This document shows positions 1 to 814 of a DNA stretch of 814 nt, piece after piece (position 1 is the first letter of the stretch; each line of letters opens with the position of its first letter). Source of the DNA: a phage. Position numbers and translations under genes: made by a program. Where the stretch lies: sequence record KC755108.1; one strand, written 5' to 3'. The notes under the pieces are model-generated. The model searched no databases and was not told the origin of the DNA. It was given only the letters and a program-made list of their open reading frames with translations.

Positions 1-25
1 TATATTGTTTAATCTTCTTTATCAT
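1..25 (-). other. Window-start segment where the gp23 translation diverges (probable 1-nt deletion near 23-25, and about 13 nt at 1-13 not recognisable as gp23)
   Basis: The core frame reads ...ALLFQM IKKIKQY. gp23 as I recall it continues LLFQ-IDKEAVEIARQ. The coding strand cag atg ata aag aag matches cag atT gat aaa gaa g (Q I D K E) if one T is restored, but the remaining ...attaaacaatata gives D-stop in that frame and does not resemble the expected continuation. Confidence 0.4.
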
Positions 26-727
26 CTGGAACAGTAAAGCTTTGAAGCTTTCACCAGCCCAACGAGCACCACGGATATCAATCGGGTCCTGGAAGTCAAA
101 CACACCAGCTTTAGCGCCAACGGTGTTGGTCATACCAGATTTACCAACCTGTGCGGAGTAGTTAATCCAATCGATAACTTCGCGGTTGATTTCCAGCATA
201 ATTTCGGTAGCCAGAATACCACTCAATTCGGCATCAGCATCCATACCGTGAACAGCGCGGAGGTCCTGTGCCAGTTCGATGGAGTAGCTTGCTTTCAGCT
301 GACGGGATTTAGCTTCGATAACTTGTTTGTCGATGCGGAAGCCCATTTCGTTCCACGGGTTATCAGAGGAACCGTTAAAACCTTCTTGCAGTTCGGCGAT
401 GGAGGTAGCCATACCTTCAGCGATTTCTGCCAGCTGACCAGCTTCGAGCAGTTTGGTAACTTCAGCGTCAAGTTTAGCAGCATCAGTAGCACCAGCATCA
501 ACGGTTACAGCTTCAACAGCCTGGTAGTGTGCGGAACCGGTTGCTTCGAAGAAGTGAGAATAAATTTTACCAACTTCCAGAACTTTGCTTGCAGCCAGTG
601 CTTCAAAAGTCTGAGCAGCGCCCTGACCAGAGAACATAGCGTTCGGAGCATACATCGGATGGAAAGCTTCTTTAGCACCAGCAGCGACAGGGTCTTTACC
701 GTATACTGCACGCAGTGCAAATACCTG
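2..727 (-). CDS. 23: Major capsid protein, T4-type (gp23 family), internal fragment; open at the window start (no stop codon in window), 5' side interrupted by a frame break at about 727-729
   Basis: Hand translation of the minus strand in the frame whose codons occupy + positions 3k+2..3k+4 gives no stop from 727 down to 2. Read N to C it starts QVFALRAVYGKDPVAAGAKEAFHPMYAPNAMFSGQGAAQTFEALAASKVLEVGKIYSHFFEATGSAHYQAVEAVTVDAGATDAAKLDAEVTKLLEAGQLAEIAEGMATSIAELQEGFNGSSDNPWNEMGFRIDKQVIEAKSRQLKASYSIELAQDLRAVHGMDADAELSGILATEIMLEINREVIDWINYSAQVGKSGMTNTVGAKAGVFDFQDPIDIRGARWAGESFKALLFQM... Long blocks match T4 gp23 as I recall it from memory (not a database search). Codon usage is that of a highly expressed gene (GCT, GGT, CGT, CTG, AAA, GAA preferred). 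Confidence 0.92.
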
Positions 728-729
728 GG
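727..729 (-). other. Apparent single-nucleotide insertion (extra G in a GGG run on +; extra C on the coding strand) breaking the gp23 reading frame
   Basis: The coding strand reads ccg act ggc C cag gta ttt. PTG is in one frame and QVF in the next, with one surplus base between them. Removing one base from the run restores a continuous ...NNPTGQVFALRA... matching gp23. Confidence 0.7.
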
Positions 730-806
730 CCAGTCGGGTTGTTCAGAGGCTGTACGCCACAAATATCAAACGCAATCAGATGCGGGATAGCACGCCGCAC
801 AACCCC
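729..806 (-). CDS. 23: 5'-proximal segment of the same gp23-family capsid gene, in a different reading frame from the core (frame shifted by one nt at about 727-729)
   Basis: Minus-strand codons occupying + positions 3k..3k+2 translate, N to C from 806 down to 729, as GVVRRAIPHLIAFDICGVQPLNNPTG. This matches the gp23 region immediately upstream of QVFALRAVYGKDP (T4, as I recall: MVRRAIPNLIAFDICGVQPMNSPTG). In the core frame the same bases read through to TGA at 743-745. An in-frame TAG at 807-809 ends this segment on its upstream side. Confidence 0.8.
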
Positions 807-809
807 CTA
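803..809 (-). other. Second apparent single-nucleotide insertion with an in-frame TAG (807-809) in the upstream gp23 segment
   Basis: The coding strand reads tg tta tag ggg gtt gtg cgg cgt gct. Deleting the A at +808 gives gtt atg ggg gtt gtg (VMGVV; T4 has VMGMV as I recall). Deleting one G from the 5-nt G run (+803..807) gives gtt ata ggg gtt gtg (VIGVV). Either way one extra base is present. Confidence 0.55.
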
Positions 810-814
810 TAACA

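Follow-up and report, generated by a model that had tools for sequence, protein, structure and literature searches.

With a probability that we put at about 0.9, the window (the whole 814-nucleotide stretch of phage DNA analysed here) carries on its minus strand an internal 800-base piece of g23, codons 93-359 of about 520, from an Escherichia coli/Shigella phage of the genus Gaprivervirus (Tevenvirinae), and the breaks in its reading frame are sequencing or assembly errors at the ends of a read or contig. In our judgement, the interruption of the g23 frame is a fault of the record and not of the gene. In T4, gp23 is an HK97-fold capsid protein that forms hexamers, and these make up the lattice of the prolate head. 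Assembly of the T4 head proceeds on the gp22 scaffold and is initiated at the gp20 portal, the prohead protease gp21 cleaves off the N-terminal 65 residues of gp23, and gp23 depends for its folding on both GroEL and the phage co-chaperonin gp31. The features of the window are listed below, in the direction in which g23 is read and followed by the open reading frames (ORFs) that had been listed for the window.

14..813, minus strand: g23 fragment with neither start nor stop; the homologous stretch in Escherichia phage P896, whose g23 has 519 codons, is codons 93-359 (megablast, 97.9% of 800 bases identical; pairwise CDS alignment)
808, minus strand: extra base, second frame break (relatives GTTATGGG, window GTTATAGGG; 59 bases of the query pair with 58 of the record)
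795..804, minus strand: cluster of five substitutions within 10 bases that only the window has, one of which changes M96 to V (seven-sequence and CDS alignments)
730..807, minus strand: upstream continuation of g23, P896 codons 94-120, including RRAIPHLIAFDICGVQPLNNPTG; because of the extra C at 729 it falls in a different minus frame
729, minus strand: extra C in a run of C, +1 frame break between codons 120 and 121 (relatives CTGGCCAGG, that is GGCCAGG; window CTGGCCCAGG, that is GGCCCAGG)
25..728, minus strand: main in-frame g23 block, P896 codons 120-355, T4 gp23 residues 123-356 approximately
24..25, minus strand: missing T, third frame break (relatives CCAGATTGAT, that is AGATTGAT; window CCAGATGAT, that is AGATGAT; 47 bases of the query pair with 48 of the record)
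14..24, minus strand: last 11 bases that match g23, in a third frame, codons 355-359 (..DKE; CDS alignment)
1..13, no strand assigned: terminal 13 bases TATATTGTTTAAT, AT-rich, with no alignment to any relative
295..762, minus strand: two listed ORFs, 295..501 and 505..762, which are g23 read out of frame (their frame starts at base 813, that of g23 at 814); no family match
248..790, plus strand: listed antisense ORF of 180 amino acids, a codon-usage artefact with codons in register with g23; no Pfam or PHROG match

Identification of the window as part of g23

According to the original prediction, the minus strand carries the gene of a T4-type major capsid protein; a search with a gp23 profile, together with a comparison of the minus-strand translation with phage proteins, had been proposed as the way to check it. 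Both gave the expected matches. The translation of 727..2 on the minus strand, 242 amino acids in length, scored 165.1 bits against the Pfam family PF07068 (Gp23; gathering cut-off 24.4, E 4.1e-48) and matched PHROG 138, major head protein, with an E-value of 2.5e-69. Solved chains of T4 gp23 matched the same translation without a gap over residues 123-360 of 521 (6uzc_a, E 3.3e-129), and 201 of 234 residues were identical to T4 gp23 when only the genuine gp23 part of 727..2 was counted. The upstream piece at 800..699 on the minus strand yielded a match of its own to Pfam Gp23 (28.1 bits, E 1.8e-6) at profile positions 12-35. As these positions directly precede those of the main block (36-231), the upstream piece belongs to the same gene, read in another frame. 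The predicted coverage of approximately residues 95-360 of the T4 protein was likewise recovered, residues 123-360 in the main block and about 100-122 in the upstream piece.

The DNA search pointed to the same gene. By megablast, 987 phage records matched the window, and among the matches listed the annotated feature was the major capsid or major head protein. The best matches were to Gaprivervirus at 95-98% identity, and the records with a taxonomy line were assigned to Gaprivervirus, Tevenvirinae. The matched P896 gene is part of the usual head module, preceded by the genes for portal, prohead core and scaffold and followed by that for the capsid vertex protein; the window itself contains no flanking genes. 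The description of the gene as a well-known essential structural gene rather than part of a novel system agrees with the Pfam, PHROG and T4 gp23 identity and with the annotation of the relatives. Nothing in the window is new: the gp23 family and the genus-level lineage are already known, and close relatives have already been deposited.

Comparison with T4 gp23 and gp24

The encoded sequence is colinear with T4 gp23 (PDB 6uzc, 5vf3, 7vs5 and 8t9r; PF07068) and free of gaps at residues 123-360, with E-values around 1e-129. It differs from T4 gp23 at approximately 14% of the residues, and the phage lineage belongs to the genus Gaprivervirus, unlike T4, which belongs to Tequatrovirus. The differences are unevenly distributed: 27 of 33 fall into residues 149-222 (window 430-650), which appear to be the variable stretch of the protein, and residues 223-356 are almost invariant. 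All residues in the window belong to the mature protein. From the 86% identity to the solved T4 gp23 we infer that the protein would adopt an HK97-type fold and would serve as a subunit of the capsid lattice.

A weak local similarity to the T4 vertex protein gp24 (PDB 1yue) was also obtained, over 82 residues with an E-value of 2e-7, as expected of a gp23 paralogue. When the two proteins were set against each other as an orthology test, the T4 gp23 chains gave E-values of approximately 1e-129 and the gp24 chains of approximately 2e-7. The two E-values lie more than 120 orders of magnitude apart in favour of gp23, and the window therefore represents gp23 and not gp24.

Reading frames of g23 and the listed ORFs

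Six-frame translation showed no stop between +742 and +2 in the minus frame that starts at base 814, and this frame leaves the window at its low end. Recognisable gp23 sequence in this frame begins at +727 with QVFALRAVYGKDP, reading QVFALRAVYGKDPVAAGAKEAFHPMY... The ORF listing reports only ORFs that are closed by a stop inside the source, and the open g23 frame is absent from it because this frame runs off the end of the window without a stop. Six-frame translation and the ORF listing thus agree with what had been proposed, namely that the g23 frame has no stop between 727 and 2, exits the window and for this reason went unreported.

The original prediction required revision on three points. 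The gene had been read as 727..2, and the main block within these limits is indeed gp23; however, coding continues up to +813 in another frame, and the last eight codons (+25..+2, MIKKIKQY) do not belong to gp23, given the T lost between +25 and +24 and the lack of any match for bases 1-13. An ORF of 34 amino acids at 696..800 on the minus strand begins with RRAIPHLIAFDICGVQPLNNPTG, and its first 24 residues are gp23. Similarly, the frame does run off the edge of the window as had been stated, but the gene is also interrupted as written and not merely cut off. The covered part of g23 has no uninterrupted frame in the record, since the indels at 808, 729 and 25/24 split it among the minus frames.

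The three listed ORFs had been described as not being the gene, the minus-strand pair as g23 read one frame off and the plus-strand ORF as its antisense. This description held, and no match of any of the three to a Pfam or PHROG family was obtained. That one of them (248..790 on the plus strand, or 295..501 or 505..762 on the minus strand) is nevertheless a real overlapping or antisense gene is an idea to which we attach next to no weight. The observation that speaks for an antisense gene is the length of the open frame: read in codon register with g23, the antisense strand has no stop over 250 codons in the window, over 205-258 codons in all six relatives, and over 344 codons in the whole g23 of P896 (L001 2725-4284). 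The stops of this frame, however, correspond to the g23 sense codons TTA, CTA and TCA, and the frame stays open because these codons are almost never used. They occur one, zero and zero times, respectively, among the 266 g23 codons of the window and two, zero and zero times in the whole P896 g23. Their near-total avoidance fully accounts for the open frame, none of the listed ORFs has a family match, and the annotation of P896 in this region consists of the capsid gene only. On codon usage, the 180-amino-acid antisense ORF was rejected as a gene.

Comparison with Gaprivervirus relatives

Over 800 bases, the window shares 95.8-97.9% nucleotide identity with g23 of Gaprivervirus phages, and it represents the same gene from the same genus-level lineage. 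The closest records are those of the Escherichia phages P896 (97.9%), 212, PSD2001 and vB_EcoM_RZ and of Shigella phage SP18 (95.8%). After repair of the indels, 263 of 266 residues agree with P896; for 212, PSD2001, RZ and SP18 the count is 258-260 of 266. The window differs from these relatives in its three single-base indels, its five clustered substitutions and its 13-base tail, which occur in no relative.

The main block differs from P896 at 9 of 704 bases. Five of these mismatches are synonymous single-base changes, one results in G167S, and the remaining three make up the codon swap Q241S. That the single-base mismatches are mostly synonymous is as expected under purifying selection.

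The haplotype of the window is identical to no single record. Residues 159-222 follow P896 and not 212 or PSD2001. The change in codon 167 (G167S) is located at position 589. At codon 241 (365-367), three bases are swapped relative to P896, converting CAG (Gln) to TCT (Ser), and S241 is common to 212 and PSD2001. This combination marks the allele of the window as a mosaic of known Gaprivervirus haplotypes and suggests recombination within the genus.

Origin of the frame breaks

Differences private to the window were determined in a seven-sequence alignment of the window and six relatives. All of them are located at +1-25, +729 or +795-813. Between 26 and 794 there is no private substitution, and at 63 polymorphic columns the window has the same state as one or more of the relatives. 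The length of a short homopolymer is altered by two of the three indels (CC to CCC and TT to T). Once the three indels are repaired, 266 codons without a stop are obtained, of which 263 are identical to P896 gp23, and the sole private amino-acid change, M96V, falls into the garbled end. For the segment 755..814, the best identity to any phage record was 89.8%, compared to approximately 98% for the whole window.

Of the five private substitutions at 795-804, four introduce a G when read in the orientation of the gene (C on the plus strand as given). This one-sided bias looks like a base-calling artefact.

Exact counterparts of the defects were sought in other records. For the extra C at 729, a query of 71 bases matched 712 phage records; the best of these were identical at 70 of 71 positions over 70 record bases, and none of the records had the insertion. 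Exact-pattern scans of viral, metagenome and genome collections found neither the extra-C pattern nor the tail-junction pattern, and the pattern combining the missing T with the tail was absent from the viral collection. Look-ups of the exact products of the antisense ORF and of the open g23 frame likewise gave no match, and no longer contig containing the window turned up in these searches. When window positions 1-60 were used as the query, none of 321 phage records reached into bases 1-13. These bases represent either the garbled end of a read or contig or foreign sequence (vector, adaptor or chimera), the stretch being too short to identify.

Taken together, the clean interior, the homopolymer indels, the dense substitutions at one end and the unalignable tail at the other indicate that the ends of one read or short contig are degraded, and do not look like a decaying or specially expressed gene. 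From this pattern of differences, the best reading of the breaks at 808, 729 and 25/24, of the cluster at 795-804 and of bases 1-13 is that they probably stem from read-end or contig-end error. The extra C at 729 stands against it, lying 85 bases inside the end of the window and deeper than the remaining defects.

The three frame breaks are present in the sequence as written, and taken literally they would mean that the frameshifts are real and that the window derives from a defective copy of g23, carried for instance by a phage genome that is not viable, by a fragment in decay or by a frameshift mutant from the laboratory. We regard this as quite improbable. It is established that g23 is essential in T4-type phages. 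Decay is at odds with an interior that is devoid of private substitutions and in which more than half of the main-block mismatches to P896 are silent, and defects at both ends accompanied by a substitution cluster and an unalignable tail are typical of poor read ends; the extra C, moreover, recurs in none of the phage records compared. Nor was any match found in 5,426 complete E. coli genomes, a result that speaks against a chromosomal remnant and on which we rejected a prophage or chromosomal origin of the window. Less probable still is a naturally frameshifted g23, either in a defective or satellite-like T4-type genome that would borrow the capsid protein of a co-infecting helper or in a gene that would be expressed by ribosomal frameshifting at the GGCCCAGG run.

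About as improbable as a defective gene copy is the proposal that bases 1-13 mark a real junction in g23 after codon 359, formed by a mobile element (a homing endonuclease gene or an intron), by a recombination breakpoint, or by the boundary to a vector or adaptor. Homology does end abruptly at +14, the tail is rich in A and T, and the minus-strand open frame that runs across the junction starts its non-gp23 part with an ATG (MIKKIKQY). This ATG, however, is created solely by the missing T, 11 bases upstream of the tail. Thirteen bases are too few to identify anything, and the other end of the window is similarly garbled. In addition to the failure of the junction to appear in the sequence collections or in any phage record extending there, an Rfam scan of the window at E-values up to 1 gave no match to an intron or any other RNA family, and on this result an intron or structured RNA in the window was rejected. 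Sequence error at the ends of the record is the most probable explanation of the breaks, and g23 is most likely intact in the real phage.

The g23 marker region and significance of the window

Among phage genes, g23 is one of the best studied, and it serves as the standard marker of T4-type phage diversity. The sites of both primers used for this purpose are present in the window, that of MZIA1bis at 743-767 on the minus strand with two mismatches and that of MZIA6 at 181-205 on the plus strand with one mismatch (primer sequences from PMC10101079). The window accordingly contains the whole g23 diversity amplicon, 181..767, which includes the site of the extra C at 729. The window itself was rejected as a standard g23 amplicon, as it extends 47 and 180 bases past the primer sites.

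The biological import of the window is small, close relatives of the allele being already in GenBank. It does hold a lesson for annotation. On a short fragment that contains errors, an ORF caller can miss the sole real gene when the frame of this gene runs off the edge and is broken by a frameshift, and it may instead report long spurious ORFs, some of them out-of-frame readings of the gene and others codon-aligned antisense frames that are kept open by codon bias.
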